A DNA stretch of 64,000 nt from Nitrosopumilaceae archaeon (GCA_965208905.1 OZ242365.1:1472001-1536000); one strand, 5' to 3'; positions 6,039 to 63,649 are shown, numbered from the stretch's first letter. Notes: a model not told the origin generated them from the sequence alone. Program-made: numbers and translations.

Positions 6039-7148
6039 CTAGAGTGTATCATCATGTGATACGCCTACAAAGTCCTCACATGCCTTCTTGGCATCAGGGT
6101 CTGACATCTGCTGTATGGGGTGTTTCATTAGATATGCACTGGCCGGGACTATCGGACCTCCAACTCCTCGATTCAAGGCTATCTTGGCAAGGCGTATTGC
6201 ATCAATCACTATTCCGGCCGAGTTTGCCTTGTCATCCACATCAAGGCGCACCTCCATGTTGTATGGTATGTTTGCCCACTGGCGACCCTCTATGCGCATG
6301 AACATCAACTTTGTATTGCCCAGGAATGGTATAAAGTCAGACGGCCCTACGTATATGTCATCATCATCCAGGCGCTCATCCAGCTGGCTTTGGACACTCT
6401 CGGTCTTTGATATCTTTTTGGAGACTAATCTATCCTGCTCTTTCATGTTCAGAAAGTCGGTGTTACCGCCCACATTGATTTGGTATGTCCGGGTTATCTT
6501 TGTCCCCCTATCATTGCAGAGTCGTGCCAGGGTCCTGTGGACTATTGTAGCGCCCACCTGGCCCTTTATGTCATCTCCTATTACAGGGATGTTCTTCTCC
6601 TGAAACTTTGCCGCCCATGTATTATCAGATGCTATAAACGAGGGTATGCAGTTTACAAACGCCACATCAGCATCAAGACATATCTGAGCCCAGAACTTTG
6701 TCGCCTCATCAGAGCCCACAGGCAGATATGACACTATAATCTCTGTGTTGGTCTCTTTTAGTATCTGTAATATTTCATCACGTAGTTGTTCGATGGTCTT
6801 GTCAGAGGATATGGGCTTGATACGGTTGGCTACCCATATTCCGACACCATCTAGTGCGGGACTCTCATATATCAGAGCATCTGTTTTAGGCATGGTATCT
6901 TTGTCAATCCAGTCCACCATGTTGGGGTACGCGTATATGGCCTCATTGATGGTGCGTCCCACCTTGTTCTCACCCACATCAAAACCACAGACAAAGTCAA
7001 TGTCATGTATGCCATATCCCGCTAGTTTGGGATGTATTATGCCGATTACCTGCTGGTCCTGGTTGCGCCTATAGTATTCGATACCCTGTATCAGACCAGA
7101 GAAGCAGTTTCCTATGCCCACAAGTCCAACTCGAATTCGCTCTGACAA
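6039..7148 (-). CDS. ino1: Myo-inositol-1-phosphate synthase
   Basis: VGIGNC Rossmann motif, YLPVGS, IGDDIKGQVGAT, GGNTDFLNM, SKKISKT. Confidence 0.95.
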   Translation of the reverse strand: MSERIRVGLVGIGNCFSGLIQGIEYYRRNQDQQVIGIIHPKLAGYGIHDIDFVCGFDVGENKVGRTINEAIYAYPNMVDWIDKDTMPKTDALIYESPALDGVGIWVANRIKPISSDKTIEQLRDEILQILKETNTEIIVSYLPVGSDEATKFWAQICLDADVAFVNCIPSFIASDNTWAAKFQEKNIPVIGDDIKGQVGATIVHRTLARLCNDRGTKITRTYQINVGGNTDFLNMKEQDRLVSKKISKTESVQSQLDERLDDDDIYVGPSDFIPFLGNTKLMFMRIEGRQWANIPYNMEVRLDVDDKANSAGIVIDAIRLAKIALNRGVGGPIVPASAYLMKHPIQQMSDPDAKKACEDFVGVSHDDTL

Positions 7149-9452: not shown

Positions 9453-10498
9453 TGTATTATGTCGAAATTATTTCGCCTAGTCATCGGTGTCCCTCTCCAT
9501 CCATTCTAAGTCACTCTTCCTGACATCATCTGGTACTTTTTTGTTGTGAAATGCCTGTAGCGGGGTCTCGCCATTGTTTATGTCTAAAGACCAGTGCAGT
9601 CGCACCTCGTTGTAGTACGCGACAAACTCCGCTAGGCTGCCAAAATGACATAGTTCTTCTTCCAAGGTGCGGTGGAACCGTTCAAGCTTGCCGTTTGTTT
9701 GTGGGTGGTAGGGGCGGGTGTTGATCAACTCAATACCCCGGTCAAGCAGCTCTGCCTCAAATATAGTGGGGGTCCATGATTTTGCAGGAATCTTTCTTCT
9801 CACACCCACAAAGCACGATCCGTTGTCGGAGAGTATGGTGGCCGGGGTTCCAAACTCAACAATGCTATTTTGCAGGACTGTTACCGCGTTCTCGGATGTG
9901 GCCCCCTTGAATATCATGGCTCCAACCACACATCTTGACGCATCATCAAGATATGTGATTAATTGGTAGCCTTGAAAACGTGGATCTTTCATCGCATGCC
10001 AGTCCGTATGCCACATCGCATTGGAGTATCTGCGCTCATAGCGTATCCATTTACGCCTGCGCGATTTTGCTGCAGATAGAGTGACCATATTGTTTTCTTT
10101 CATGATTGTGTATACCGTTTTTTCACTTATTTGTATGCCCTTGTGATTTAAGTACTTGGTGATCCTTGTGACGCCTGCTGGCATTATACGATGTGCTGCT
10201 AGTACGACGTTGGTTTGCTCCTCGGTGGGAGGAATCTTGGGTCTGCCTGGCATTTGTAGTGTGGGAATCTTGCCCGTTGCACGATACATTGCCCAGAGTT
10301 GTTGTACGCGTCTCTGGCTAATCTTCATCTCTGTAGCAATGTGTGATGTACTACTACCTTTCCTGCATTGTCGAATGATATAATCTATCTGCTTCTGTGT
10401 CAGATTGACTCTCATGGGTTTGCGTGATCTATATAGACTAAAATATTCTTTGGTTGGCAGTCTAAAGTTAGGGCGAACTAATTTCCGCACAATAGACA
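9453..10498 (-). mobile_element. IS481-family insertion sequence with intact transposase (about 9477-10415)
   Basis: TGT...ACA ends with imperfect IRs; flanking direct repeat CGTAAGATACTTGG (9439-9452, 10499-10512); WHTD, LDDASR, LSDNG, PYHPQTNGKLERFH motifs. Confidence 0.92.
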
Positions 10499-10601
10499 CG
10501 TAAGATACTTGGGCATACGCTCACACCAACTTTATGATATGTAATATATGCAAGTAGAATACCTGCGAATAACCACATAGTTAGTGTTATATGGGATTTA
10601 A

Positions 10602-17131: not shown

Positions 17132-17599
17132 TTAACCACAGCTCAATATTTTATTACCATTCTCATCCATTATACCATCCCGTATTTTAGTAGTAGATAT
17201 GCGAGTGCCGTCTGAACCAGATACCATGGGCACTATTACAACATCCACGGCAGCTAATCCGCGCCTAGTACGCATATCATTTAATACATCACCCATGTGG
17301 GCGGTCTCCTCACTACACACCAAGACATGCACAGATGGTTCCAGTACGGAAGGGCCAAAATCATCATCCAGACGTGATATAACATATGTAGCAGTGGGGA
17401 ACTTGTCCCGTATAAAGCAGGTCAAATTATGTAGCCGTGTGTCATAGTTATTTACAACATGCTTGTCTCGCCGTATAACAAACTCATCACTACACAGGCC
17501 GATTATGGTACTATCATACTGTAACGCCACCGAAAGTAATGCCTCGTGGCCTTTGTGTATAATATCAAATGTACCACCAGTAGCAGCTATAAAAGACAT
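17132..17599 (-). CDS. coaD: Archaeal phosphopantetheine adenylyltransferase
   Basis: GGTFDIIHKGH, DDFGP, VCSEET, RISTTKIR motifs. Confidence 0.9.
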   Translation of the reverse strand: MSFIAATGGTFDIIHKGHEALLSVALQYDSTIIGLCSDEFVIRRDKHVVNNYDTRLHNLTCFIRDKFPTATYVISRLDDDFGPSVLEPSVHVLVCSEETAHMGDVLNDMRTRRGLAAVDVVIVPMVSGSDGTRISTTKIRDGIMDENGNKILSCG

Positions 17600-23528: not shown

Positions 23529-24584
23529 TGTTTTATATGAAAATTATGTTCGTTAATCATCGGTATCTCTCTCCATCCATTTTGGGTCCTTTTCTCTGAT
23601 CGCTTTTGTGGCCTTTCTGACAGAAAATGCCTGTAGTGGTGTCTCGTAGTTGTCAATATCCAACGAAAAGTGAAGTCTGCGCTCATTATAGTACTCTATA
23701 TAGGAAGATAGACTATCATAATGATGTATCTCTGTCTCTATACTACCGTGAAAGCGTTCCAGTTTGCCGTTTGTCTGCGGATGATACGGTCGTGAGTTTA
23801 TCATCTCGATTCCACGGTCTAACAACTCGGCCTCAAACGCAGTAGGCTTCCATTTGCCCTTAGGTGAATCGTCATGCCTTCTTCCCCCGTTAAAACACCT
23901 ACCATTATCTGAGAGGATAGTGGCCGGTGTACCAAATCTCGCTATTGCTTGTCGCAGCACATCTACTACGTTTTCTGAGGTGGCTTCCTTGAATAGGGCA
24001 GCACCCGTTATACACCTTGATGAATCATCTAGAAATGTGACTAGGTTGAGCCCTGCAAAGCGTTGATCCTTCATTATATGCCAGTCAACATGCCACATGG
24101 CATTGGAATATTTGCGCTCATACCTAACGTATTTTCTTTTTTTGGATTTTGCTACAGATGATGTGACTAGTCCATGTTCTTTCATTATGCGATATATGGT
24201 GGCATAGCTTATATTCGGATTGTCTTTTCTGACCCTCCTTGCTGTTCGTATGATGCCTACATCTTCCTCTGCATGTTTGTTCAACACGGTTCGGACCTCC
24301 TCTGCCGACGGTGGTGGGTGGACTGGCCGGCCTGGCTTTTGTTGCACGTGTATCTGTCCTGTTCTTGTAAACTCTGCACATAGTCGTCCTACATGTTGTG
24401 GTGTTACACCTATATCGTCTGCTATGTCAACAAGCGTCTTACCCTTACCACGTTCCCTTATGGCGTATCGTATCTGTTTATCCGTCAACTTTGTCATTTT
24501 CATCTTTTTTCGTGATCGATAAAGCGTGAAGTATTCCTTTGCTTGCAACCAGAACTTAGTCGAACCTAATTTTTGTACAACAGA
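23529..24584 (-). mobile_element. IS481-family insertion sequence with intact transposase (23553-~24503)
   Basis: Imperfect IRs; 15-bp direct repeat GTAAACATCATTATT (23514-23528, 24585-24599); WHVD, LSDNG, PYHPQTNGKLERFH. Confidence 0.92.
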
Positions 24585-25006
24585 GTAAACATCATTATTA
24601 AAAAATAATTAATATCTACTGTGTAATAAGTAGCGTAACTGCAAATTACCATGCTAAAAAAAATACTGTTGAAAAAGGTTCCTCCCGCCAAGCCAGGTGA
24701 CTGTGCCGCGCCTGGCGCCTCTAGTGTTTTACGCCGCTAAAGTCCAGTCCATATAAAATGTGATGGGCAATCAATGGTGCGTGTTGTGCCCTGGCTCATC
24801 ACCCGATTTTGCACGGGGAATCGGTACCGCGGCAGTACACGGGGCCGGTCCGCTCTTCAATGCTTTGATATTGAGACAAGGACACGCCGGCTGGTGCATG
24901 GCCGTCAAGTATGACCATGCCGTGCAAGCCGCAAGGCGGGTTGTGGCCAAGTCGCCCGTTCCTGCGGGAATAACCCCAATCACATCTTTCGGAGAGGTCC
25001 CGTTGA

Positions 25007-26068
25007 CTATCGCTTGTAGAACCGGGTGGATGCCAGTTGTGCCTTGTATCTCTTTTTGCCAATGCCCACTGCAACGTGGGCCCCCACCTTATACTCCGGC
25101 AAAACGTAGCAGTATCCGATGGGCCTGCCCAGCGTGGGAGAGAAGCCGCCGGAGGTGACCGTGCCCACCGGCTTCTCGTTGTCATATATGGTATCACCTT
25201 TTCTTGCTACGCGTCCAGAATCAACGACCATAAAGCCTCGCAGCTTCTTTGTTATCTTCCTTGAGAGCAGTGCGTCTCTGCCGATAAAATCAGTCTCCAT
25301 CTTTACTGTCCACCCCAAGGGCGCCTCCAAGGGTGTGGTGTCCTCGTCTATATCATTTCCATATAGCATCATTCCCGCCTCCAGTCGCAGGGTGTCGCGC
25401 GCCCCCAGACCTGCAGGCATTATGCCAAATGCGGCGCCGTTCTCCAATATCACATCCCAGAGGTGGCCGTGCCCGCCATCAAAGAACAGCTCAAAGCCGT
25501 CCTCGCCGGTATATCCTGTCCGGGATATCATACAGGGGGCGCCGTCCAAGTCCATGTGCACAAGCCGGAAGGGCCTCACGCCTCCCATCTCTGCACCCAT
25601 CTTCTCAAGTATGCGGGACGACTGCGGGCCTTGCAGGGCCAGCAGGGATGTCTCAGCCGTAACGTCTTTTATCTCGCACCGGCTCATGTCTGCACCGGCC
25701 ATTATCCAGTCCATGTCCTTTGTCCTGTTGGACGCGTTAACCACCATGACAAAATCGCCGGGACCCAGCCGACTTACTATGACATCATCCACTATCCCGC
25801 CGCTGTGGTTGCACATCGGCGAGTACAGTGATTGGCCGTCTGCCACTTGACGTATGTCGTTTGTTATTACACGCTGTATCAGATCTTGGGCACCCAGACC
25901 GCGTATCTTGAAACGCCCCATGTGTGACACATCAAAGAGGCCCGCACTGCCTCGGACACCCTTGTGTTCCTGAATTATACCCGAGTATTGAAGGGGCATA
26001 TCCCAACTGTAAAAGTCCACAATCTTTGCGCCCAGCCCGAGGTGTCGCTCGTAGAATGCAGTTCTCAT
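25007..26068 (-). CDS. gcvT: Glycine cleavage system aminomethyltransferase T
   Basis: GLFDVSHMG, VVNASN, LALQGP, SRTGYTGEDGFE, GLGARDTLRLEAG, VTSG. Confidence 0.96.
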   Translation of the reverse strand: MRTAFYERHLGLGAKIVDFYSWDMPLQYSGIIQEHKGVRGSAGLFDVSHMGRFKIRGLGAQDLIQRVITNDIRQVADGQSLYSPMCNHSGGIVDDVIVSRLGPGDFVMVVNASNRTKDMDWIMAGADMSRCEIKDVTAETSLLALQGPQSSRILEKMGAEMGGVRPFRLVHMDLDGAPCMISRTGYTGEDGFELFFDGGHGHLWDVILENGAAFGIMPAGLGARDTLRLEAGMMLYGNDIDEDTTPLEAPLGWTVKMETDFIGRDALLSRKITKKLRGFMVVDSGRVARKGDTIYDNEKPVGTVTSGGFSPTLGRPIGYCYVLPEYKVGAHVAVGIGKKRYKAQLASTRFYKR

Positions 26069-26117
26069 GGCGCAGATAACGTTACCATTATAAATATATC
26101 TTGATTAAGTTTTTGGT

Positions 26118-27014
26118 ATGGACGGCCCTGCTCTCATACGTCCGCGCTGGCTGAAGACTAAGATACCCTCAGGCGAGGCATACGCCAACGTACGAAGAAC
26201 CATCAAGCGGCACAGCCTGCATACGGTGTGCCAGGAGGCATCGTGCCCGAATGTGGCCGAGTGCTGGGGCGCCGGCACTGCCACCATAATGATAATGGGC
26301 GACATCTGCACCCGGGGTTGCGGATTCTGTGATGTGAATACAGGCAGGCCCGGGGCCTTGGATGTGCGGGAGCCGGGCGCCGTGGCAGGGGCAATACTAG
26401 ATTTGGGCCTTCGGTACGCTGTAATAACATCGGTGTGCAGGGACGATCTTCCCGACGGCGGGGCGGGGCATTTTGCAGAGACCATACGGCACATACGGCA
26501 CCGGTGCCCCGACACCATAGTGGAGTCTCTGATTCCGGATTTTGCAGGAGACCATACCCTGATAGATGCGGTGGCCGATGCAGGACCCCATGTGGTGGGC
26601 CACAACATAGAGACCGTGCGCCGGCTCAGCCCGCAGGTCCGGGACCGCCGGGCTGGCTACTCCCAGTCGCTGCAGGTCCTGCGCCACACCAAAGAGAGTC
26701 ATCCCAGAATATTTACAAAGTCATCCATGATGTTGGGTCTGGGCGAGTCCACAGACGAGATACTTGAGACGGCCACAGACCTCCGGGAATCCATGGTGGA
26801 CTTTGTCACGCTGGGCCAGTACATGCAGCCTTCAACACGACACCTTCCGGTCAAAGAGTACATACATCCTGAGAGGTTCGATCAGCTAAAACACATGCTG
26901 TGTGATTTGGGGTTCCTGCATGTGAAGGCCGGACCCTTTGTGCGGAGCTCCTTTCGGGCCTCGGACATAGCGGATATCGTATCGGGCCGCCGGGGCATGC
27001 GCCCCACCACATAG
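26118..27014 (+). CDS. lipA: Lipoyl synthase
   Basis: TVCQEASCPNVAECW auxiliary-cluster motif, CTRGCGFC radical-SAM motif, VRSSF. Confidence 0.96.
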   Translation: MDGPALIRPRWLKTKIPSGEAYANVRRTIKRHSLHTVCQEASCPNVAECWGAGTATIMIMGDICTRGCGFCDVNTGRPGALDVREPGAVAGAILDLGLRYAVITSVCRDDLPDGGAGHFAETIRHIRHRCPDTIVESLIPDFAGDHTLIDAVADAGPHVVGHNIETVRRLSPQVRDRRAGYSQSLQVLRHTKESHPRIFTKSSMMLGLGESTDEILETATDLRESMVDFVTLGQYMQPSTRHLPVKEYIHPERFDQLKHMLCDLGFLHVKAGPFVRSSFRASDIADIVSGRRGMRPTT

Positions 27015-27105
27015 TATCCTGTAGTGACACTCAATATTTCTGGAGCGGTAATGGCGCTAGACTAGTTTGAGAAAAGTATTGGATCTCACCTTGGAGTACT
27101 ACACA

Positions 27106-28182
27106 TCAGGATATTCTCTCAAAGGCAAAGGCGCCCGCACCCTCCCAGCCGTAGTCTATGAAGCATCCCATGTTGCCCTTGTATATTGCATCCTGCCGAA
27201 TACATTCGTCTACAAATTGTATGGAGCTCAGGGCGCCCATGTTGCCCGTGCTGCTCATTATGTCATGGCTCATGCGGATCTTTGAGGGATCCAGACTGCA
27301 GCCTTCGGCTACAGAGTCCACAAATTTTTTTCCCGCAGTGTGTATGCCAAATCTATCTATTCCTTCCGGGAGTACCCTCTGCAGCCGTGTGAGGCTCTTG
27401 GCGGCCAAACGCACAATGTCGTCCCGTAGGCCCCGCGGGTCCAGGCTCATGTCAAATATCACCCTGCATCTATTGTCCGGTGACATCTTTAGCGTGGCCG
27501 CCGGGACTGGCCTTGCACTCCTTGTTACAACCACGTGGCGTGGGTCTATGCGCACCTGCGCCCCGTCCGGTTCTGGCGATATTATGGCCGATGCGGCGGC
27601 ATCGCTGAATATTAGAAAATATATCATGCTGTAAAAGTCTCCCCGGCTCTTTCGTGTGATGTTTTTGATCTGCTTTATCCTGTCCAAAAACCACTCCGTA
27701 TAGCCGGACCCCATGATTAGCAACACAGCTCCTTGACCACCCATGGCAAAGTGCCCAGCCGAGTTCAGAAGTGACTCCGGAAGCGCCGAGCACGCAAGCC
27801 CCTGCAGGTTCTGCGCCCTTATATCTTGACGCAGGGAGAGCTGCGGCACCAAACCCGCGGTGGGGGCCGGATCCAGATATTGAGGGTTGTCGTTGACAGT
27901 GATCAGCATTCCTATGCCGGACCGGTCCATTCCACCCATGGATACGCTGGCGGCCTGCCGGTACATCTCGTCCATTGTAATGGTAGGCTCCACGTACTGG
28001 TCGCTCCCAAAGTCCACCTTTGATAGATCGTATGACTTGTAAACATACTCAATGCCCAGCTGACTCTTGGCATACTCCCTTGCCTCCCTGTCCATCTTGT
28101 CCCGCAGCATGTCATCCACAATCTCTGATATGGAATAGCGGAATGGGGCCTTGACCACCGAAATGCCCGAGAGCCACACCAT
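27106..28182 (-). CDS. Type III polyketide synthase / KAS-III-like condensing enzyme
   Basis: Cys-His-Asn triad: QGLACS, IHTAG, STGNMG; LIFSDAAASAII resembles LFGDGAAA. Confidence 0.75.
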   Translation of the reverse strand: MVWLSGISVVKAPFRYSISEIVDDMLRDKMDREAREYAKSQLGIEYVYKSYDLSKVDFGSDQYVEPTITMDEMYRQAASVSMGGMDRSGIGMLITVNDNPQYLDPAPTAGLVPQLSLRQDIRAQNLQGLACSALPESLLNSAGHFAMGGQGAVLLIMGSGYTEWFLDRIKQIKNITRKSRGDFYSMIYFLIFSDAAASAIISPEPDGAQVRIDPRHVVVTRSARPVPAATLKMSPDNRCRVIFDMSLDPRGLRDDIVRLAAKSLTRLQRVLPEGIDRFGIHTAGKKFVDSVAEGCSLDPSKIRMSHDIMSSTGNMGALSSIQFVDECIRQDAIYKGNMGCFIDYGWEGAGAFAFERIS

Positions 28183-28186
28183 GCGC

Positions 28187-29113
28187 CTACAGCCCCCGCA
28201 GCAGTGTGCCTAAATCCTCAAAGAATGCGTCATCGTACCTGTCGGGCGGGAGATCAAAGCCCAGAACCAGCACGTCGGCCTCCGACTTTCGGGCCATGCC
28301 GCGTATCACACGAGCGCAGGACTCGGGTGTGCCCCATACCGCCTGCACTTCGTCCAGCATGCTGTCGTCCACCATGCGTGCCCCGCCCCGCACCCCCTCT
28401 CTGCTGTATGCGTCCCGTATGCCGGCAACATCAAATCCCGCCGCGGCCAAAGGCTCGCCATAAAAGCCGTTTGCGCCCACATATCCGGCAACGGTCATTT
28501 TTACATCCATGCGGGCATCATGCGCCGTACTGCGACTCATAGATACGGGAATGATGGACATTATACCAAATTCCGGTGGCGCCCCCTCCCGGATTGCCCT
28601 GATGTGCTTTGGCATATGTGAGCGCGGCTTGAGAAAGAAGATGACGCCGTCGGCGTTCTGTATGGCGAGCTGCAGCACCCTCTCGCCCACTGCGGCCCAG
28701 TATATCGGCCCCGCATACCCATGTACGCGGAGGCTCTTGGTATATGACACAAGACGTGATACGGGCCTGCGAAACGCCATCTTCCACATGCCCTCTACGA
28801 TGACCGGCGCGCTTGTACCAATTCCCAGTATGAACCGCTCTCCTACGGTACGGTGGATGCGGAGCGCCTGATATAACATGTCTTCACGGGTGCGAGAAAA
28901 CACGTTGATTACACCGGTGCCCATGCGTGCTCGACTTGGGAGGCCTGCCGATACCTCCAGTATCATGTCCAGTGCGTTGACACCCATTATGCGCGGGTGG
29001 GTTTCTGGAACTAGAAAGTATTCCGCATAAGATCCTGCCAGTTCGGCCGCTCTCCTCACGGCCTTTGCGGGGGCCCGTATGCCCAGCTCTATCCCTATTC
29101 TGGCCCCGGACAT
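28187..29113 (-). CDS. LLM-class (luciferase-like) flavin/F420-dependent oxidoreductase
   Basis: VPETH, MGTGVINVFSR, RFILGIGTS, IYWAAVG, ADGVI, VWGTPE. Confidence 0.85.
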   Translation of the reverse strand: MSGARIGIELGIRAPAKAVRRAAELAGSYAEYFLVPETHPRIMGVNALDMILEVSAGLPSRARMGTGVINVFSRTREDMLYQALRIHRTVGERFILGIGTSAPVIVEGMWKMAFRRPVSRLVSYTKSLRVHGYAGPIYWAAVGERVLQLAIQNADGVIFFLKPRSHMPKHIRAIREGAPPEFGIMSIIPVSMSRSTAHDARMDVKMTVAGYVGANGFYGEPLAAAGFDVAGIRDAYSREGVRGGARMVDDSMLDEVQAVWGTPESCARVIRGMARKSEADVLVLGFDLPPDRYDDAFFEDLGTLLRGL

Positions 29114-30414
29114 GCTTTCTCGGCCTCCTGCATGCGCGCTGCGGCTGCTGCCGCGTCGGCAAGGGCTTCCGGCAGGGTGGGGTGTGCATGTATGGTATTG
29201 GCCACATCCTGTGGTCTGAGGCCCATCCTTATGGCCAACGCCGCCTCACCTATGATCTCGCTGGCATGCGCGCCCACAATCAGTGCCCCCTGCAGTGTAC
29301 CGTCTCCGGTATACACACTAGCGAATCCACGGGTCTGCCCCATGCAGTTTGCCTTTGCGTTGGCGACCATCTGCACTGTGGCCGCCGAACCCTCCAGTTT
29401 TCCCACCATTGCCACCTCGGGATACGTGAACACACAGTAGGGTATTGTGGTGTAGTCTATACGGGTGTGCCGGCCCAGTATGTTATCTGCCGCGACCTCT
29501 CCCTGGCGCGTGGCCACATGCGCCAGCTCGTACACCCCAGTGACATCGCCCACCGCATATATGCTGTCTGCGCTGGTCTGCATTCTTGCATCCACGGCTA
29601 TCCCACTGTCGCCATATTTGACACCCAGCATATCGAGCCGGTCTGCATCCAAGGCCGGGTATCGTCCCACACTGGCTAGTATAACCTCGGGGTCCATCTC
29701 GTCCCTCCCCACAACAATGCGGCCGTCATGTACGTTTGCCGTGGCGCCGGTGAATACCGATATGCCGTCCAGCTTCATGTACTTTTCTACTGTATCTCCT
29801 ACAATCTTTGGTTGCCCCGGTAGTAGGGACCCTTGCGCTTCGGCCAGCCACACCCTGCAGCCCAAGGCATTCAGTATGGATGCAAACTCGCATCCGCTAT
29901 ACCCCCCTCCTATGACCAGTATGGATTCGGGTAGACTCTGCAACTCAAACACAGAGTCGGTGGTAAGCGTCTCATAGCCCGGCAAATCTATAGTCTTTGG
30001 CATGCTCCCTGTCGCCAGCACCACATTGCGGGTCTCGTATCTTGCTCCGTCAACCTCTACAACGCCTGGCGATATCACACTGGCCTCTCCGGATATTGTG
30101 TCCACATTGTGCTGTCGGAGCTGGAGTCTCATCCCCGAAGCAATTCTGGATATTGTACTCTTCATGCCGGCGCTCAGCATGTCATAATTGATGCTTATGG
30201 TGCCGTCCCCTATGCCGTGTCTCTTTGAGGCCCTCACTCTCCGGGCCAAGTCGCCCATCGCATGAAGATACTTTGTGGGGATGCATCCCCTCTGGGTGCA
30301 GGTGCCGCCAAGGCCGTTCCGTTCTATTATGCACACATTGGCACCGCCTTTGGCCAGGCTTATGGCGCATGCATAGCCCCCGGGCCCGGCTCCCACAACT
30401 ATGGCATCATACAC
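29095..30414 (-). CDS. lpdA: Dihydrolipoamide dehydrogenase (GCS L protein)
   Basis: GAGPGG, GGTCTQRGCIPTK redox disulfide, IGGGYSG, IHAHPTLPE. Confidence 0.93.
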   Translation of the reverse strand: MYDAIVVGAGPGGYACAISLAKGGANVCIIERNGLGGTCTQRGCIPTKYLHAMGDLARRVRASKRHGIGDGTISINYDMLSAGMKSTISRIASGMRLQLRQHNVDTISGEASVISPGVVEVDGARYETRNVVLATGSMPKTIDLPGYETLTTDSVFELQSLPESILVIGGGYSGCEFASILNALGCRVWLAEAQGSLLPGQPKIVGDTVEKYMKLDGISVFTGATANVHDGRIVVGRDEMDPEVILASVGRYPALDADRLDMLGVKYGDSGIAVDARMQTSADSIYAVGDVTGVYELAHVATRQGEVAADNILGRHTRIDYTTIPYCVFTYPEVAMVGKLEGSAATVQMVANAKANCMGQTRGFASVYTGDGTLQGALIVGAHASEIIGEAALAIRMGLRPQDVANTIHAHPTLPEALADAAAAAARMQEAEKACPGPE

Positions 30415-30713
30415 GGTAGGGAGTATATACGATACACAATAAATATCGCTCTTCTGTAGGATGCTGGAAATGCAAAGTGATCCATCTGATGATCAAAGTT
30501 GTATCAGATCGGTATAACTTTACATTCCCAAGAATCAGACACTATACCAACCAATGTATAGCCAACCCTCGCCGCACCCAAGTGTGTCACCCAAGCCCAT
30601 ACTGCCGACTGCCTTCTCGGATGCCCTCAGGAGGCCGCTACGATTCATTCGAAAATACACTGAAAATACCATACATCCCGACAATACCGGGTAGGGCAGC
30701 CTATGCTTCCATA

Positions 30714-31448
30714 TCATCTTTTGTGCGTCCACGACCTTTGGGAGTATCTTGCAGCCATTATCCTCCTGCATTCTGCAATGTCCTTTCCAGACAGCGACAT
30801 GGTGTCCAGCCCACAACCAAACGCATCCTGCGCCCCCCTCTTTAGTGCATCAACGGTCTGTTCGAATGTATGACCAATGCCCGCCACCCTCTCCTTCACG
30901 CCCGCAATGGCCTTGTCCCGTATCTTTGCAGTGGGCACGTTGAGCAGCGAGAACATCTTTTCCACATCCACATCCAGTAGTATGGTACCGTGCTGCAGTA
31001 GAGCACCACCCTTTCTTGTCTGGGCGTTGCCGCAGACCTTCCTCCCATTTATGGTGACATCGTTGAGGGGAGAGAATGACGCGTCCAAGCCCATGTGGCC
31101 CAGCCCCAACACCACCATGTCGCATATGCTCCAGTATGATGCCATTATATCTGAATGAAACCTCTTGGTGACCAGCGAGTATGTGACCTCCATGTCGTGA
31201 AACACCGCGCCCCCGCCGGTGATTCGCCTTACGACATCCACCTGGCTGTGCTCGCACCGCTCCAGATTAACCTCTTCGCGCACTCCCTGAAAGTAGCCTA
31301 TCGTTATGCAGGGCCGGGACCAGCCGTATAACCGTAAAACTGTGTCCCCGGCGGCGCCATACCTATACAGGAGACACTCATCCACGGCCATGTTCCACGG
31401 GCCCGCACCCAAGCCGGTCTCCAGTATCTTGATGCGCTCAAACCTTAT
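30714..31448 (-). CDS. lplA: Lipoate-protein ligase A catalytic subunit (likely start at an ATA codon at 31448; first canonical start is TTG at 31412)
   Basis: NMAVDE, LRLYGW, VVRRITGGGAVFHD, ND...GRKVCGNAQ, LQHGTIL. Confidence 0.9.
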   Translation of the reverse strand: MRFERIKILETGLGAGPWNMAVDECLLYRYGAAGDTVLRLYGWSRPCITIGYFQGVREEVNLERCEHSQVDVVRRITGGGAVFHDMEVTYSLVTKRFHSDIMASYWSICDMVVLGLGHMGLDASFSPLNDVTINGRKVCGNAQTRKGGALLQHGTILLDVDVEKMFSLLNVPTAKIRDKAIAGVKERVAGIGHTFEQTVDALKRGAQDAFGCGLDTMSLSGKDIAECRRIMAARYSQRSWTHKR

Positions 31449-31750
31449 GGCGCATCGCCTCCCGCGTCCAGTATTGCCCCCGTCAGCGATTCGGCATCAA
31501 ACCCAAAGCATCTGGTACCGGCAAGTGCCGAGGAGATTCTCTGCCTCAGGGCATCCCTTTCCAGCTCTGTTCCCAGTAGCCCCGCCTCTAGGCCATCTAT
31601 CGAATCCTCTGGATGCATGAAAAAGTCTCCGGTGATCCTTATGTATCTTATCGTACGGGATTGGCGGGAATAATCCAGCCTTATTCTCACCATCTTCTCC
31701 AGCTTTGCCACATGTACGGTTACGACCGTGCTGTCCCGGTCAGGGTCCAT
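31445..31750 (-). CDS. Lipoate-protein ligase C-terminal/accessory subunit (LplB-like)
   Basis: IRITGDFFMHPEDSIDGLEAGLLG motif; adjacent to lplA. Confidence 0.85.
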   Translation of the reverse strand: MDPDRDSTVVTVHVAKLEKMVRIRLDYSRQSRTIRYIRITGDFFMHPEDSIDGLEAGLLGTELERDALRQRISSALAGTRCFGFDAESLTGAILDAGGDAP

Positions 31751-31753
31751 GCG

Positions 31754-33199
31754 TTATTCCTCCGGTGGTCTCCAGCGCAGGTCAAGATGCCGCGCGGCCA
31801 TCACCTCGTCCAGCCTTCCGGTGGCCGTGGTGTGAGGGGCGCCGTCGAGCATGTCCGGATTCTGCTCCGCCTCACGCGCTATCGCAGCGAGCGCACCGGC
31901 AAGCCGGTCCAGCGTCTCCTTGCTCTCCGTCTCGGTGGGCTCTATCATTAGGGCCTCTTTTACTATAAGCGGAAAGTATACGGTAGGTGGGTGGAAGCCA
32001 TAGTCGATCATTCTTTTTGCCATGTTCAGGGCACTCTTCTCACCGAACCGCCTTGTGGACACCACAAACTCGTGGGCGCACCGCCGGTCATACGGCACAT
32101 CAAATATATCCCTTATGAGACCCAAAAGGTAGTTTGCATTCAGGAGGGCGGCCTCCGAGACATTCACAATGTCGGATCCCCACGATTTGATATACGCCAA
32201 GGCCCTGAGCATGATTCCAAAGTTTCCATAGAACGAGTGGATCCTGCCGACGCTCTTATCGTAGTTATAGTCTAGATCAAACGTGGGGCCACCATCATGC
32301 CTCACAATCCTCGGCACTGGCAGGTACTCCTCTAGGAATGATCTGACACCCAAGGCGCCGCCACCGGGCCCGCCGCCACCGTGCGGGGTGGAGAAGGTCT
32401 TGTGCAGGTTCAAGTGCATCATGTCAAATCCCTGCTCCGCAGGCTTGCTGATTCCCAGCATCGCGTTCATGTTTGCCCCGTCGCAGTACAGAAGCGTTCC
32501 GTGCTTCCTTGATAGTTCAGTTATCTCCTGAAGGTGCTCCTCGTAGAATCCCAGCGTGTTGGGGTTTGTGATCATCACCACAGCCACGTCGTCCCCTATG
32601 GCCTTCCGGAACCCGTCCAAATCCATGTTACCGCGCTCATCGCTACGTACCGTTACGGTCTGGAACCGGCATGTGGCGGCAGTGGCGGGATTCGTTCCGT
32701 GCGCCGAGTCCGGAATTATTATCCGGGTGCGCCTCTCGCCCATCTCTGCAAAGTATCTCTTGGCGATCATGACCCCCAGCAGCTCCCCCTGAGAGCCGGC
32801 TGCAGGCTGCAGGCTGAATGCATCCATGCCGGTGATCTCCTTTAGGGCCTCCTGCAGATCCCACATGACCTCCAGCGCGCCCTGCGCGTGGGACGGTGGG
32901 GCGTGAGGGTGCATGCCTGCGAATCCGGGGAGCCTGGCCATATCCTCGTTTACGCGCGGGTTGTACTTCATGGTACACGAGCCCAGTGGGTATATGCCGG
33001 TGTCTATTCCATAGTTTTTTCTGGAGAGCTCCGTATAGTGGCGGATCACCTGTATCTCGCTTACATCCGGCAGGGGCAAGTAGTCCCGTTCGGGAAACTG
33101 GTCTTTTATGCCATCTTCATCTGTGCGGATGTGTCCGGTGTTTGCTTGGTCGTAATCAAAGATAAGATTCTCAGGTGTGTCCTGGTCTTGCGCAATCAT
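31754..33199 (-). CDS. gcvPB: Glycine dehydrogenase (decarboxylating) subunit 2
   Basis: YPLGSCTMKYNP, QPAAGSQGE, SAHGTNPA, HLNLHKTFSTPHGGGGPG, MIEPTETE; ATGA overlap with the gcvPA stop. Confidence 0.96.
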   Translation of the reverse strand: MIAQDQDTPENLIFDYDQANTGHIRTDEDGIKDQFPERDYLPLPDVSEIQVIRHYTELSRKNYGIDTGIYPLGSCTMKYNPRVNEDMARLPGFAGMHPHAPPSHAQGALEVMWDLQEALKEITGMDAFSLQPAAGSQGELLGVMIAKRYFAEMGERRTRIIIPDSAHGTNPATAATCRFQTVTVRSDERGNMDLDGFRKAIGDDVAVVMITNPNTLGFYEEHLQEITELSRKHGTLLYCDGANMNAMLGISKPAEQGFDMMHLNLHKTFSTPHGGGGPGGGALGVRSFLEEYLPVPRIVRHDGGPTFDLDYNYDKSVGRIHSFYGNFGIMLRALAYIKSWGSDIVNVSEAALLNANYLLGLIRDIFDVPYDRRCAHEFVVSTRRFGEKSALNMAKRMIDYGFHPPTVYFPLIVKEALMIEPTETESKETLDRLAGALAAIAREAEQNPDMLDGAPHTTATGRLDEVMAARHLDLRWRPPEE

Positions 33200-34452
33200 T
33201 GCATGGATACACCCCTCACATACGTCTCCATGTCTGGTACGGTATTCTTTTCTGTGCAGCATACAAGCAGCCGGTGGTCGTCCACTGCGATTCCGCCCAG
33301 TATGCCGCACCGCTGTAGGCGTTCTAGTATGTCTGTTGCGGACCTTGGTGTCTCTACAAGAAACTCGTTGTAGAACGGACCCGGCGTTATGGTTCGGAAC
33401 CCCCTTGTGTGAAGCATCTGCTGCAGCCGGTGCGCCCGACGGTACGAGGTATGGGCAACCGACCGAAGGCCGGTCCTTCCCAGCAGGGCCAGATATATGG
33501 TTGCAGACAGCGCCAAGAGCGTCTGGTTTGTCGTTATGTTGCTGGTGGCGCGTTCCCGCCTGATGAACTGCTCTCTTGCCTGTAGCGTAAGGACAAATCC
33601 CCGCCTGCCGGACCCGTCTTGAGTAGCGCCCACTATCCTTCCGGGTAGTTTCTTGGTAAGCGTATTCCTGACTGCCATGAATCCCAGACACGGGCCTCCA
33701 AAGCTTTTGGGTATTCCGAACGACTGCCCCTCGCCCGTCACAATGTCCGCCCCTGCCTCTCCGGGGGGACGCATGATGGCCAGTGATGTGGGATCCGATA
33801 TGCAGCTTATGAAGAGAGATCCATTCCGGTGAGCCTTCTCTGCCATGTGTGTGGGATCCTTTATGGAACCATCAAAGGCAGGTACCTGTTGTATGACGCA
33901 TGCCACATCGTCGTTTATGGTATCTGAGATGAAGATGTCGGCTCCCTCACAGTATGTCCTGAGAACCTGAAGGTATGCTGGATTCAATCCCGCATCCACG
34001 AAAACGCCTCTTCTTTTTGTGTATGAGTGGGCCAAGAGTACGGCTTCTGCCAGGGCCGAGGCTCCGTCATACAGTGACGCGTTGGAGACGTCCATTCCGG
34101 TGAGCAGGCATATGTATGATTGGTATTCATATAGAGCCTGCAGCACCCCTTGACTTGCCTCTGCCTGATACGGGGTGTATGCGGTGAGAAATTCCCCCCT
34201 TAGAACTATGTGACTTATGGCAGAGGGGATGTAGTGGTCGTATGAGCCGCCCCCGGCAAAGCACTTGGTCTGTGTGTTCTTTGCTGCAAGCGACTCGATA
34301 TATGATACCACATCCATCTCGCTCATTGGTTCGCCGAGGTCCAGCCTTGCTGCCCGGGGAACCTGATCCGGTACAAGCTCATCAACCGTCCGGCAGTCTA
34401 TTGCGGCGAGCATCTTTGATATGTGCTCACCTGTGTGCGGAATATAGTTCAT
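33196..34452 (-). CDS. gcvPA: Glycine dehydrogenase (decarboxylating) subunit 1
   Basis: EFLTAYTPYQAEASQG, NASLYDG, FGGP.LG, LQAREQFIRRERATSNI. Confidence 0.96.
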   Translation of the reverse strand: MNYIPHTGEHISKMLAAIDCRTVDELVPDQVPRAARLDLGEPMSEMDVVSYIESLAAKNTQTKCFAGGGSYDHYIPSAISHIVLRGEFLTAYTPYQAEASQGVLQALYEYQSYICLLTGMDVSNASLYDGASALAEAVLLAHSYTKRRGVFVDAGLNPAYLQVLRTYCEGADIFISDTINDDVACVIQQVPAFDGSIKDPTHMAEKAHRNGSLFISCISDPTSLAIMRPPGEAGADIVTGEGQSFGIPKSFGGPCLGFMAVRNTLTKKLPGRIVGATQDGSGRRGFVLTLQAREQFIRRERATSNITTNQTLLALSATIYLALLGRTGLRSVAHTSYRRAHRLQQMLHTRGFRTITPGPFYNEFLVETPRSATDILERLQRCGILGGIAVDDHRLLVCCTEKNTVPDMETYVRGVSMQ

Positions 34453-34848
34453 TTATTTCTCAGCGTTCCCAACCGATTCGTCGTACTGATCCCGAGTGAG
34501 CAAAGATTCCAGCTGGGCCGGATTCTCCGGCGCCATCTTTACAATCCACCCGTCCTGATATGGTGACTTGTTGATCAGTTCGGGCTGTGATAGCAGGTTC
34601 TCGTTGACATGTGTAACCCGCCCATCCACCGGACTGTATACATCCGTTGATGTCTTTACGGAGTCTATTATTGCTATGGCATCATTATACCTGTAAGAGA
34701 CACCGACCTCGGGCAGTTCAACAGAGACCACATCTCCGAGCTGATCCTGTGCAAATTCCGTAATTCCCACGATTATGCCGTCGTCTGCTGTGTCCACCCA
34801 TTCGTGCTCCTTGGTGTATCTCCTAGCCAACAGGTCAGATTTGGACAT
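34453..34848 (-). CDS. gcvH: Glycine cleavage system H protein (lipoyl carrier)
   Basis: YTKEHEWV, GITEFAQDQLGDV, IDSVKT lipoyl lysine, INKSPYQDGW. Confidence 0.96.
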   Translation of the reverse strand: MSKSDLLARRYTKEHEWVDTADDGIIVGITEFAQDQLGDVVSVELPEVGVSYRYNDAIAIIDSVKTSTDVYSPVDGRVTHVNENLLSQPELINKSPYQDGWIVKMAPENPAQLESLLTRDQYDESVGNAEK

Positions 34849-34895
34849 CTTCTTTAAAAAGCTATTCGCTCATATTCCGGGATTTATCCTTGTTA

Positions 34896-35600
34896 CTGAC
34901 ATTTAAATACTAATTTTGTATCACATAGTATAAACAAACAACCAGCAAACGACTCCGAAAAGCCTGTTAAAGATCTGCCCCTAGCGAAGTTATTCAAGAT
35001 ATTTCCCGATGAAGAATCCGCCATGAAGTGGTTCGAAGCCAACATATGACCGGATGGCCAAGTATTTCCTCGGTGCGGATACAAGTATACCCACGTCAGC
35101 AAACATAAGGAGATGCTGTACTTCTGCGTCGAGTGCAAGAGGCACTTTAGTGTCAAAAATAGGCACTGTAATGGAGCACTCCAAAATAAGCTACCGGAGA
35201 TGGGCCGTGACCACACACCTGCTTGCAACGCGCCCCAAGGGAATACCCAGCGTACAACTAGGTCGTGATCTAGATATAAAGCAGAGATCTGCCTGGCTAC
35301 AACACAAGTTCAGGGAGTCGCGGAGCACCGTAGCGGGGCCGAACCTAATGTCCGGCCCCGTCTAGATGCATCTGAGAGGATGCGAGAAGAACAAACATAC
35401 AGACAAGAAGTGCAAAAATAAAAAGATTGCCGTTGTGGGCATCAAGGACCGAAAGACTGGAACCGTTAGGGCCATACCCGTGCCGGAGACCGCCGCGGCA
35501 CGCCTCTTGGCATTTATCGAGGCCAATGTAGACCCCAATTCCAAGAAATTCACCGACGAGAACCGGACATACAACGTTAAAAAAGACATAAAGCATATAC
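34896..35600 (+). mobile_element. IS1595-family transposase pseudogene
   Basis: LFKIFPDEESAMKWFE, PRCG..CVECKRHFS zinc ribbon, GTVMEHSKI, KGIPSVQLGRDL, TDEN; internal stops and frameshifts. Confidence 0.85.
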
Positions 35601-36379
35601 TAATGAGTTATCTACCTATGACGTATCGGAGTGTTTTGCGGGATATTTTTGTGAGAGAGTCTGCGCATTTCTTTTATGGTATCATGGTTAATACACTTTG
35701 GTAAGTAGTTTGACACATCAAAAAGGCGCTCAACCACTCGTGTCTGGCGGGGAAATTACATAGGTGTTTGACTGGCTGCTGGTCGCATAGCGGCCCGATG
35801 TGTCTTGGAACTATCACGAGGACGGAAACGACTGCCCGTATTACCGTTCTTCACAAATAGCCATGTCTTTAGGCCTGCCCGTCTTCCGCAACCAGTCCGC
35901 GACAGGCGATGAGGTGGTAATGTCTATCGATTTATTCTGAGTTTTCCATTTTTTTGGCGAGTACTATGCGCATAGAAAGGCGACGGCACTTTGCATGAAT
36001 TAATGATCTACGCTATAGTAATGAGAAACAGCCAGAACATACCGTCATCTGGCAAGTATCGGAAGCACTTGACCGAGGCGGTAGAAGCTGGCATGCAGTC
36101 CTCCTTCTAAACTACCAACCATGATAACCCAAAACATATTTTTACAGAACGTGTTTGTGTATGTCACTGAGATCACTCATCAGAATAGCTCAGGGATGCC
36201 ACCAGCCTGTCTCAACACCCTTCGGAAAGACTTGTTAAAACAATTTCCTAGTGCCGCCAGACACAAAAGTATGCTGGTAGTGTGGTGTTTTAAGGTAGGA
36301 GCATACAGAGTGTTGCAGTAGAAGGCAAAACAAGCAAGGCATCTATGTCAGACAGACAACAAAAAACTGCCTAAAAAGT

Positions 36380-40563: not shown

Positions 40564-42096
40564 TATAGCGGCGTACATAAGTTTCTGTACATTTTCTAGA
40601 AATAATTCATCCTCCAACACCATAAGAGTCATCGATGTGAAAACCATGTTGGGTTTTTACACTGCATTATGTTGATAGTACGTCTTTCTAAGATATGTGG
40701 CAAAAACATATTGTATAATATTACACGATCTTTATAGCGCGCCGATTGGAAAAGTCAAAAATTTATTTCCCGTACTTGTAGTATGGCAGATGCCAAATTA
40801 TTGCAACAGGTCCGTAGTTCCGAAAAGTCAGGATGTGCTGCACGCAGATTAGGCATGTTGATAGTACTACTCAATATGGGGAATATCTGCAGCAACAGCC
40901 ATCACATATTCCTGTGACAGGCGTACGGTGGCATTGTGGGATGGGAGGGTGCCTCAGAATATAGATGTATTTGGTTATATACGAAGTGCACTTATCGATA
41001 TGCCCCTGTCCAGGCGCCCAACAAAAATACCGCGAAAACTGCTTGCAAAGGCAGAAGCGTGGCGATTGAACAGTGCGTTTACCACGACGGAGCTCTGCAT
41101 TACATGTAAGAGATCTCAGGTGTAAGGCTAAGCCCATCACAGGCAAGACGTTATGCCAAAAAGTGGGGGTATTCGCGCAAAAAGACATCCCCCCGTGCAC
41201 GTGAACAAGGCCACCATACAGGATGTGGAAGGATGGAGAGAAAGTGTTTTCCATATGGTCGCATAATCTAGGTTATGCTATTGCAACTCAGGATGAGTCA
41301 AACTATGCAGGATGCCAACTGTCGGGAAAATACTGGGCAAGGGTTGGATTGCGTATATTTATGTCATACGGTCAGGGGGCCATCAGAAGTTTTCTGTATT
41401 CTGTACCATGATATCAGACGGTAGATACTTCTTCAGCCACCCCAAGACGGCGGACACGACAAGTTTCCTGACACATATAGAGGAGGCGTACAAAATGGTG
41501 GGAAAGATGGTGCTGTTTCTGGACCGGGAGCCCCAGCATACATCTGCCGCGACCAAGGGGTTCTTTGAGAGTCACGATATCATTGTACAGTGGTATCCGG
41601 TGGGACATTCATATCGTAACCCTGTAGAGAAGGTCTGGAGCGTGTTGAAACACGCATTTCTACATTCCGTCCGCTATGCCAATACTGCCACACATTTAAC
41701 ATCAGTGTACAGGTTCATCTGGAACTATAAATGTGACTATTGTTTTTTCAAATACTGGAAACAAGGCCATCAGAGGGAATTATACGACCATTTGTACGGT
41801 CAGGCGGCCCGTTAGACCCGGCAATAGAAAAGTTGCGTGTAAACAGCGCCAAGAAACGCCGCCGTTACAAAAAACGGTAAAATATACAAAACCACGGCTG
41901 TTGCCACATGTCCTATACGGCCTTGAAATGCCGTATATGTAGTCATATAGAAACATGGTAGTGGCGCATAAAAAGTGCAGTACTGGCCACAATCGTATGA
42001 TGTTTTATCAAAATCAGGCGCACAGTCCTGCCAACCTGACCTGTGGGCATACCTAGGCGATTTTCAATTGTGCAGGAACTTTTGCGTGCCGCTATA
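40564..42096 (+). mobile_element. IS630-family element with frameshifted transposase
   Basis: TA-flanked IRs TAGCGGCGTACATAAGTTTCTGTACA / TAGCGGCACGCAAAAGTTCCTGCACA; QDES, LFLDREPQH, NPVEKVW motifs spread over different frames. Confidence 0.85.

Positions 42097-60370: not shown

Positions 60371-63645
<3,275 letters not shown>

Positions 63646-63649
<4 letters not shown>

Follow-up and report, generated by a model that had tools for sequence, protein, structure and literature searches.

The window analyzed here is a stretch of 64,000 nucleotides (nt) from a Nitrosopumilaceae archaeon (GCA_965208905.1 OZ242365.1:1472001-1536000), whose genome is closed, 2.21 Mb in size, and 99.6% complete. The nearest named relatives of this genome are Cenarchaeum-like and Nitrosopumilaceae metagenome-assembled genomes, several of them derived from sponges. 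The window contains a module of genes for the glycine cleavage system (GCS) and for lipoylation, and within that module lie two adjacent genes of unusual sequence. One encodes a divergent thiolase-fold condensing enzyme of 358 amino acids (aa) that resembles type III polyketide synthases (PKSs) and 3-ketoacyl-coenzyme A (CoA) synthases (KCSs), and is called here the KAS-like gene, after the β-ketoacyl-acyl carrier protein (ACP) synthases (KASs) (27106-28182, minus strand). The other encodes a 308-aa luciferase-like oxidoreductase, LLM, that is probably F420 dependent (28187-29113, minus strand). We are highly confident that LLM and the KAS-like protein constitute a two-gene functional unit of the GCS/lipoylation module in two families of ammonia-oxidizing archaea (AOA), the Nitrosopumilaceae and one sister family. 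With regard to what the unit makes, we tentatively favor a reading that we consider plausible and well short of probable, namely, that an ACP-independent condensing enzyme and an F420H2-using reductase supply the octanoyl precursor for LplAB and LipA, with a dehydratase and one reductase borrowed from the carbon fixation cycle.

The pair follows lpdA, encoding the dihydrolipoyl dehydrogenase or L-protein of the GCS (29095-30414, minus strand; Pyr_redox_2, 192 bits; TIGR01350, 369.5 bits), whose translation shows both the CxxxxC redox motif and the C-terminal His...Glu motif. An earlier reading of this DNA, made from the sequence only, had described the spacing of these genes, and its description proved exact. 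The lpdA stop lies over the LLM start in an overlap of 19 nt (29095-29113), a 4-nt spacer (28183-28186) separates the LLM stop from the KAS-like start, and the KAS-like gene is convergent with lipA across a gap of 91 nt. The three genes run head to tail on the minus strand inside a complete GCS/LplAB/LipA module, and their overlap and spacing suggest that lpdA, LLM, and the KAS-like gene may be cotranscribed. Contigs from four RNA libraries, made in four studies, cover parts of lipA, gcvT, gcvH, gcvP, lpdA, and LLM. One of them crosses the lpdA/LLM junction (28946-29163, run X5), and coverage of the KAS-like gene consists of a single 173-nt piece (27244-27416, run X3). These contigs are assembled, match at 90 to 99% identity, and may include DNA carry-over; they do not establish that the genes are transcribed or share one transcript, nor do the stretches without coverage show the opposite.

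The linkage of the pair to the module was examined in 27 loci on contigs of named genomes, all of them Nitrosopumilaceae or Nitrosopumilales. In 22 of these, lipA, gcvT, gcvH, gcvPA, gcvPB, lplA, lpdA, LLM, and the KAS-like gene are found together, and three more (L015, L023, and L026) end at a contig edge yet are consistent with the full module. At another locus, L010, LLM and the KAS-like gene adjoin each other among unrelated genes, away from the gcv genes, and the genome carries lipA on a different contig; the last, L027, is a decayed remnant of the module. The KAS-like gene is immediately preceded by LLM at every one of the 27 loci (one decayed) and at three further loci from a second family, f64. 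The usual order in most genera is lipA, in the opposite orientation, followed by gcvT, gcvH, gcvPA, gcvPB, lplB, lplA, lpdA, LLM, and the KAS-like gene, and the usual site is between the genes for ribosomal proteins L1/L10 and L12, followed by alaS and leuS. In the lineage of the window, gcvT and lipA are shifted to the opposite end of the block. The catalytic subunit LplA, LplB, LipA, and the lipoyl acceptor are encoded together, an arrangement conserved in 22 to 23 loci.

Co-occurrence was determined by searching 201 genomes of the family for LipA, the LLM orthologue, and the KAS-like gene. LipA is present in 17 genomes, and the LLM orthologue is present in the same 17 (E ≤ 4.9e-121), the next best match (4.5e-50) being a paralogue. 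A full KAS-like gene was found in 16 of those 17 (E ≤ 2.5e-140), and the 17th holds a 40-residue piece of it at a contig edge. None of the 184 LipA-negative genomes gave a strong match to LLM or the KAS-like gene, and two gave weak partial matches to a longer open reading frame (ORF). Leaving aside G072 and G073, which are flagged as unpublished, the count is 15/15. The co-occurrence of homologs with gcvH, lipA, and lplA that the sequence-only reading had put forward as its check is therefore strongly positive, and it is so in two families of the order. The two genes of the pair also diverge together: pairwise distances for the KAS-like protein and LLM correlate with r = 0.97, and those of either protein with other module genes correlate with r = 0.81 to 0.89. 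The evolutionary rate of the pair is about 1.2 times that of lipA.

Where the module decays, the pair has been lost or pseudogenized along with it. The remnant at L027 (7149-10410; G547/G810) retains fragments of lipA (residues 73 to 256), lpdA (13 to 111), LLM (133 to 287), and the KAS-like gene (225 to 358), the last with three in-frame stops; all of the gcv and lpl genes are gone, and the remnant still sits between rpl1-rpl10 upstream and rpl12 downstream. In G062, a genus-mate without lipA and the KAS-like gene, only gcvH and the first 42 codons of gcvPA are kept. The G062 gcvH (L075 8431-8952, G062:C1) looks intact, with 129 of 131 residues at 81% identity, and is apparently a remnant of the lost module.

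A sample of 401 genomes across the order, in which the KAS-like family was counted at E ≤ 1e-25, confined it to two families, f1 (7 of 112 genomes plus the window genome) and f64 (4 of 9). The four KAS-positive genomes of f64 are also its four LipA-positive genomes. Three f64 loci have the order LLM, KAS-like gene, lipA in the opposite orientation, gcvT, gcvH, gcvPA, gcvPB, lplB, lplA, and lpdA, with amino acid identities of 31 to 33% for the KAS-like protein, 32 to 36% for LLM, and 53 to 57% for LipA. Taken with the arrangements in f1, these loci indicate that the pair has been kept in the module across three different gene orders. In f64 and in another family, f3, the module adjoins a pyruvate-phosphate dikinase gene, inverted between the two, and this shared neighbor suggests that the core module is old.

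The KAS-like protein reaches no named family by curated sequence thresholds. With Pfam profiles, ACP_syn_III_C gave 25.9 bits against a cut-off of 26.6, a marginal miss, and Chal_sti_synt_C gave 18.3 bits against 27; Chal_sti_synt_N and ACP_syn_III gave no match. The best NCBIfam match was DpgA, at 29.5 bits against a cut-off of 425, and FabH equivalogs scored 17.8 to 19.4 bits against cut-offs of 285 to 437. FAE1_CUT1_RppA (PF08392), which outgroup archaeal proteins do match, gave no match to the KAS-like protein at E ≤ 0.01. The high divergence first noticed by eye is borne out by these scores, and the Cys-His-Asn triad said to be intact is so. Cys131, His281, and Asn314 align with the catalytic residues of known enzymes in phmmer and hmmsearch alignments, are invariant in 19 of 19 family members, and do not vary in a wider set either (15 of 15 sequences, some of them relatives at 20 to 36% identity). 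The HTAG and YGWEG motifs singled out earlier were both found in the sequence. The family as a whole carries the motifs NDNxxYLDPxP, QG-L/M-AC, YTxWFLDRIKQ, HTAG, TGN-T/M-GA, and DYGW-E/D-G, and 69 of its alignment columns are invariant. The last motif occupies the C-terminal place of the GFGPG loop, which we take to be a conserved type III PKS motif near the C terminus.

A word-indexed search of 5.8 billion proteins yielded 74 relatives of the KAS-like protein, nearly all of 354 to 370 aa, the few named members coming from Cenarchaeum or Nitrosopumilaceae. Against 1.84 billion cluster representatives, the family profile matched 223 proteins at E ≤ 1e-3 and only 17 at E ≤ 1e-30. As far as sequence searches indicate, the family is small and sharply bounded. 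ESM Atlas searches with the KAS-like protein and LLM returned only their own clusters and generic KAS III and LLM clusters, and a metagenome scan with the distant relative P0076 alone found no relative. The KAS-like and LLM families are new, divergent branches of known superfamilies.

The AlphaFold model of the KAS-like protein (predicted local distance difference test [pLDDT] score, 87.6) most resembles type III PKSs. The best 50 Foldseek matches were all type III PKSs, with template modeling (TM) scores of 0.75 to 0.81 and 14 to 18% identity. In VIA-align comparisons, the model gave Z scores of 37.2 with Steely1, 37.0 with PKS11, 35.7 with germicidin synthase, and 35.4 with KCS6; ten type III PKS entries ranged from 34.6 to 37.2, versus about 32 for KAS III and about 31 for 3-hydroxy-3-methylglutaryl (HMG)-CoA synthases. 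By its modeled fold, the protein belongs to the group of CoA-dependent condensing enzymes that comprises type III PKSs and KCSs. A profile of the family itself (A1) had no match in the PDB at E ≤ 1e-6, and a broader profile that included outgroup archaeal sequences (A2) had its best PDB matches with KCSs (E = 5e-26) and PKS18; the A2 match to KCS is not family specific, because A2 includes the outgroup sequences. Type III PKSs that take fatty-acyl starters (PKS11 and PKS18 of Mycobacterium tuberculosis, the C-terminal domain of Dictyostelium Steely1, and germicidin synthase) share the full-length thiolase fold, with Z scores of 35.7 to 37.2 and a root mean square deviation of about 2.5 over 333 to 334 aligned residues, and their Cys-His-Asn triad is in register with that of the KAS-like protein. 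Type III PKSs act on CoA thioesters without ACP. The KAS-like protein differs from them in its low identity (14 to 18%), in its chalcone synthase Pfam domains, which stay below cut-off, in having DYGWEG in place of the GFGPG loop, and in its family-specific YTxWFLDRIKQ segment. Its gene also lies in a module of cofactor and primary metabolism, not in a natural-product cluster.

Several related sequences were noted in passing. P0055, a 550-aa protein on one 4.7-kb metagenomic contig, joins a truncated amino-acid-kinase N terminus to a KAS-like protein lacking its first 57 or so residues. We rejected this fusion as a functional clue, since both parts are truncated and it occurs on a single contig; it is probably a rearrangement or an assembly chimera. 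A Nitrosopumilaceae KAS-like gene (G739:C12:658-1698) has one in-frame TAG, which may be due to recoding, to pseudogenization, or to an error in sequencing. At G058:C1:760806-761300, G134:C6:47994-48752, and G066:C90:870-1622, ORFs of about 390 aa match only the N-terminal half of the KAS-like profile (E = 1e-15 to 1e-20) and appear to represent a more distant thiolase-fold paralogue, two of them in genomes without lipA. In another family of Thermoproteota (G211, L036 1045-2809), an ordinary KAS III/type III PKS-like gene that passes the Pfam cut-offs lies beside a gene for a DUF35-type OB-fold/zinc-ribbon protein, an arrangement that recalls the archaeal thiolase/HMG-CoA synthase/DUF35 set and proposed ACP-independent fatty acid synthesis.

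LLM contains a Bac_luciferase TIM-barrel domain (67.8 bits against a cut-off of 27.9). Its nine NCBIfam matches were all to F420-type LLM subfamilies or to Mer, all far below cut-off, and 53 alignment columns of its family are invariant. The LLM model (pLDDT, 88.8) had structural matches only to F420 TIM-barrel enzymes, with PepI, Mer, Adf, and FGD the nearest; PepI gave the best Foldseek E value (1.1e-13), and Mer gave the best TM score (0.75 to 0.77). PepI, of pepstatin biosynthesis, is described in the accessible text of PMC12081711 as an F420H2-dependent TIM-barrel β-keto reductase acting on malonyl-condensation products. The likeness to PepI, in which His62 and Tyr122 are catalytic, is a distant one, with a TM score of only 0.62 and 16 to 17% identity. 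A gene of F420 synthesis, cofE (50436-51170, minus strand; F420_ligase, 225.5 bits), is present in the window, as had been pointed out before; the other cof genes were outside the scope of the search. A prediction of a KAS-like/LLM complex from alignments, run without controls, scored 0.00, a value that speaks neither for nor against binding.

The metabolic setting bears on what such a pair could do. Lipoate biosynthesis requires an octanoyl group, which in bacteria and mitochondria comes from octanoyl-ACP. Searches of the closed window genome gave no match to ACP (PF00550), phosphopantetheinyl transferase (PPTase; PF01648), or E2 (PF00198); as controls, the ACP and PPTase searches gave matches in 11 and 10 of 14 genomes, respectively. 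With neither ACP nor PPTase in the genome, a condensing enzyme there cannot use ACP, and because there is no E2 catalytic domain, no lipoyl acceptor other than GcvH is evident. Also present are two crotonase-family genes, a 3-hydroxyacyl-CoA dehydrogenase, and a thiolase, as expected where the 3-hydroxypropionate/4-hydroxybutyrate cycle operates. The accessible text of PMC10332631 holds that archaea are without ACP and that their LplAB ligases depend on octanoate or lipoate in free form, and it names no source of the octanoate.

In the pathway that we tentatively favor, we infer the substrates, the use of F420, the reduction step, the chain length, and the link to octanoate. The KAS-like protein would catalyze a CoA-dependent decarboxylative condensation of an acyl-CoA with malonyl-CoA to give a 3-oxoacyl-CoA, and LLM would act on that product as an F420H2-dependent reductase, at the level of either the β-keto or the enoyl group. 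The 3-hydroxypropionate/4-hydroxybutyrate cycle of the host would supply malonyl-CoA, C4 acyl-CoAs, a crotonase, and 3-hydroxyacyl-CoA dehydrogenase, and the pair and the cycle enzymes together would build a short saturated acyl chain, octanoyl. Octanoate would then be released, LplA-LplB would use ATP to attach it to GcvH, and LipA would turn the product into lipoyl-GcvH. The logic is that of plant KCS/FAE1 in fatty acid elongation, which carries out CoA-dependent condensation on its own and leaves the reduction of the resulting 3-oxoacyl-CoA to other enzymes, although the KAS-like protein, for all its Z score of 35.4 with KCS6, has no match to PF08392 and no membrane anchor. BioZ (Z = 32.4) offers a precedent for a KAS III-type condensing enzyme dedicated to the acyl skeleton of a cofactor, in that case the pimeloyl precursor of biotin. 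BioZ uses malonyl-ACP and feeds the type II fatty acid synthesis (FAS II) of its host, whereas the window genome has neither ACP nor FAS II, and the cofactor is a different one. A BioZ-like role in biotin synthesis for the KAS-like gene itself was rejected, since the gene is found in only 17 of the 201 family genomes and, to our knowledge, every AOA needs biotin for its carboxylase.

A number of observations weigh against the octanoyl proposal. Two enzymes alone cannot make a saturated C8 chain, and the proposal has to assume that the host lends a dehydratase and a second reductase. The products that type III PKSs are known to release are usually cyclized and unreduced, and the module contains no thioesterase or other release enzyme. 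The use of F420 by LLM is suggested by profile and fold similarity, and LLM reaches the cut-off of no named F420 subfamily, its best match, TIGR04024, giving 63.4 bits against 345.4. The genomes behind the co-occurrence are related and not independent, and the counts reflect a handful of evolutionary events rather than 17. The distribution of LipA across the order is broader than that of the pair: 149 of the 401 genomes have LipA, and 137 of these are without the KAS-like family and 12 with it. The f3 locus L067 is the same nine-gene LplAB/LipA/GCS module with no LLM or KAS-like gene, and in f3 as a whole the KAS-like family occurs in 0 of 111 genomes and LipA occurs in 18. A KAS III-type protein matching PF08541 over its cut-off was found in none of the five LipA-positive f3 genomes checked. 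In the f69 and f73 loci examined, lipA is beside 2-oxoacid dehydrogenase genes, and in f69, f73, and f66 loci it is beside a short LipB/LipM-like transferase, a different system.

The f3 module shows, therefore, that the pair is not needed for the module everywhere. It is a lineage-specific addition, or it was lost in f3, and there is no universal requirement for it. Organisms of richer habitats might salvage octanoate or lipoate, which would reconcile f3 with a biosynthetic role for the pair, and we offer this as speculation. The suggestion made in the sequence-only reading, of an ACP-independent route to the octanoyl or another acyl precursor for lipoylation, thus holds in part: the linkage, the absence of ACP, PPTase, and E2, the CoA-type fold, and cofE all agree with it, and what does not survive is a general requirement, given f3 and the 137 of 149 LipA-positive genomes without the pair.

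The same facts admit other explanations. The pair may make some other small acyl or polyketide product that is neither C8 nor a lipoate precursor and whose benefit is confined to times of active glycine cleavage (for example, a cofactor-like molecule, a protectant, or a regulator); the KAS-like protein would then be a true type III PKS, with LLM tailoring its product. An accessory product would account for an f3 module that works without the pair. The closest structural matches are type III PKSs that release their products, namely, alkylpyrone, germicidin, and acylphloroglucinol synthases, and DpgA, though far under its cut-off, is the best NCBIfam match. We nevertheless regard this explanation as unlikely, if worth keeping in view: no tailoring, export, or resistance genes lie beside the pair in the 30 loci examined, and strict co-occurrence and co-decay with lipA and the GCS lack an obvious rationale for a secondary metabolite. 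It is very improbable, in our judgment, that the pair has no functional link to the module and merely hitchhikes because both are inherited in one gene block. Few independent lineages stand behind the co-occurrence, and the faster evolution of the pair relative to lipA would fit such a history, but the pair has been kept through three gene orders, in two families, and down to 31% identity; the invariant columns (69 in the KAS-like protein and 53 in LLM) and the loss or pseudogenization of both genes in decayed modules also argue for function.

Two further explanations assign separate or different chemistry to the proteins. The alternative raised earlier, that LLM is a Mer-like F420-dependent methylene-tetrahydrofolate or -pterin reductase draining the C1 unit from GcvT, with a separate role for the KAS-like protein, has been weakened, and we now consider it improbable. 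Mer has both the best TM score and the best phmmer match to LLM in the PDB (E = 1.4e-5), the GCS yields methylene-folate, and the window genome has no match to canonical MetF (PF02219). LLM also shares with Mer the 'GIE' at the end of β-1, although in f1 orthologues only: this Glu (Glu9, in 'GIELG') is invariant in 16 of 16 f1 orthologues and corresponds to Glu6, the catalytic residue of jMer in the accessible text of PMC11094777. In both f64 orthologues aligned, the position is Val, and the acidic residue at the end of β-4 of jMer, Asp96, aligns with an invariant Ala102 of LLM ('GIGTSAP'). Mer equivalogs scored far below cut-off on the module LLM (NF002619, 36.3 bits against 276; TIGR03555, 24.8 against 348.7), and two other LLMs of the window genome scored 131 to 135 bits on the Mer equivalog versus 36 for the module LLM. 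Those two core LLMs (L044:301-1248 and L045:267-1379, both minus strand) are candidate methylene-folate reductases of these archaea. The module LLM has close paralogues in 195 of the 201 family genomes, and so the core C1 need is probably met elsewhere. A Mer-like function would also leave unexplained the fixed pairing with the KAS-like protein (r = 0.97) and the intact pair that stands apart from gcvT at L010. Alternatively, the KAS-like protein could be a thiolase-fold acyltransferase or hydrolase, comparable to CerJ, DpsC, and ChlB3, that moves or releases octanoyl or lipoyl groups between CoA and another acceptor, so that the lipoyl arm is salvaged or repaired; LLM would share its substrate. 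CerJ (Z = 29.2), ChlB3 (Z = 30.8), and PhlABC (Z = 30.8) are within its structural neighborhood, and its invariant motifs NDNxxYLDP, YTxWFLDRIKQ, and DYGWEG are absent from canonical synthases. We hold this to be decidedly improbable, as condensing enzymes score higher (Z = 35 to 37), the full Cys-His-Asn triad of decarboxylative condensation is invariant, several of the named acyltransferases have altered triads, and acyl attachment is already provided by LplAB. The rest of the probability we leave to explanations outside this set.

The remaining genes of the module surround the pair. On the 3' side of the KAS-like gene are lipA, encoding lipoyl synthase (26118-27014, plus strand; TIGR00510, 386.8 bits, above cut-off), and gcvT, encoding the aminomethyltransferase (25007-26068, minus strand; GCV_T, 296 bits). 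Upstream of lpdA on the minus strand are the two genes of a two-part lipoate/octanoate-protein ligase: lplA, for the large catalytic subunit (30714-31412; LplA-B_cat, 167 bits; NF053750 LplA_large, 149 bits, below cut-off), and lplB, for the small subunit corresponding to the C-terminal domain of LplA (31445-31750; Lip_prot_lig_C, 26.8 bits against a cut-off of 24). The lplB gene is conserved in 23 loci and was missing from the earlier gene list. Glycine dehydrogenase subunits 2 and 1 are encoded by gcvPB (31754-33200, start approximate, minus strand; GcvP2_C, 91 bits) and gcvPA (33196-34452, minus strand; GDC-P, 397.8 bits), and the lipoyl carrier is encoded by gcvH (34453-34848, minus strand; GCV_H, 144 bits). 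The longest gcvPB ORF (31754-33691, minus strand) is 645 aa long with a GTG start and would run about 500 nt into gcvPA; Pfam matches start near residue 210 of that ORF, which probably puts the true start near 33200. The gap between lplA and lpdA (30415-30713) is about 300 nt in the lineage of the window versus about 45 nt in Nitrosopumilus-type loci, and it could hold a promoter for lpdA-LLM-KAS or be the scar of a rearrangement. An ORF on the opposite strand in and around this gap (30477-30845) has no Pfam match.

In the genus of the window, the module, including the pair, behaves as one unit. The genus-mate G116 shares with the window only 24915-34866, exactly gcvT to gcvH, at 90 to 92% nucleotide identity and with other flanks. 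The GC content of the module is 0.555, the second-highest value among 441 ten-kilobase segments of the genome, whose mean is 0.456 (standard deviation, 0.029). Insertion sequence (IS) elements border it on both sides, an rve-family IS transposase on the left (23553-24548, minus strand), multicopy in a genus-mate, and an IS1595-like transposase fragment on the right (35366-35704, plus strand), multicopy in relatives; both kinds of sequence are multicopy in genus-mates. No direct or inverted repeats bounding the module were found, only two short pairs that are probably due to chance. Scans of the window with ARAGORN and with Rfam at gathering thresholds gave no match.

The window has an unusual abundance of mobile-element genes (67-603, 9477-10499, 23553-24548, 35366-35704, 41312-41815, 53638-54339, and 54393-55427), which comprise three rve-family transposases, two DDE_3 fragments, the IS1595-like fragment, and a TnpB-like gene (Cas12f1-like_TNB). 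It also encodes a 1,092-aa Type ISP restriction-modification enzyme (60371-63649, minus strand; Type_ISP_C, 265 bits, with coupler and N6_Mtase domains), a myo-inositol-1-phosphate synthase (6039-7148, minus strand), and a cytidylyltransferase-like protein (17132-17599, minus strand). Inositol-phosphate osmolyte genes are discussed for deep-sea AOA in the accessible text of PMC7265257.

The module of the window is the GCS and lipoylation cluster of deep-sea and sponge Thaumarchaeota, and one of our loci, L005, is from the sponge symbiont 'Thaumarchaeon TS' (90% identity). Early AOA genomes were reported to be without any lipoylation in the accessible text of PMC3904984, and the accessible texts of PMC7265257 and PMC7848895 describe the cluster as accessory in AOA from the deep sea and from sponges, place it close to insertion sites, and give its content as gcvHPT, E3, COG0095, and COG0320 only. 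Neither main text contains the term '3-oxoacyl' or 'luciferase', and 'polyketide' is absent from the main text of PMC7848895. A literature search linking glycine cleavage, 3-oxoacyl, and Nitrosopumil- found no paper, and titles and abstracts on type III polyketide synthases in archaea and Nitrosopumilus held nothing that we judged to be related. The fixed tie of these two protein families to a cofactor module appears to be undescribed in the searchable literature.

Whatever its product, the pair is a small, clonable candidate for an octanoate source, strictly tied to lipA and lplAB within two families, and should the octanoyl proposal be wrong, it is still a conserved component, in need of another explanation, of a module that serves to mark deep-sea and sponge-associated AOA in ecological work. 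The stronger statement, that module-bearing AOA make their own octanoate without ACP or a fatty acid synthase, by means of a dedicated CoA-dependent ketosynthase and an F420H2-dependent reductase that draw on the 3-hydroxypropionate/4-hydroxybutyrate cycle, we hold to be possible and rather doubtful. If true, this would define a de novo route to the carbon skeleton of lipoate for the first time in archaea and would give F420 a new role, its first in the synthesis of a fatty-acyl chain. The pathway would also constitute an ACP-independent route to a cofactor precursor, by which the module would bring its own cofactor supply to hosts without lipid-type fatty acid synthesis.

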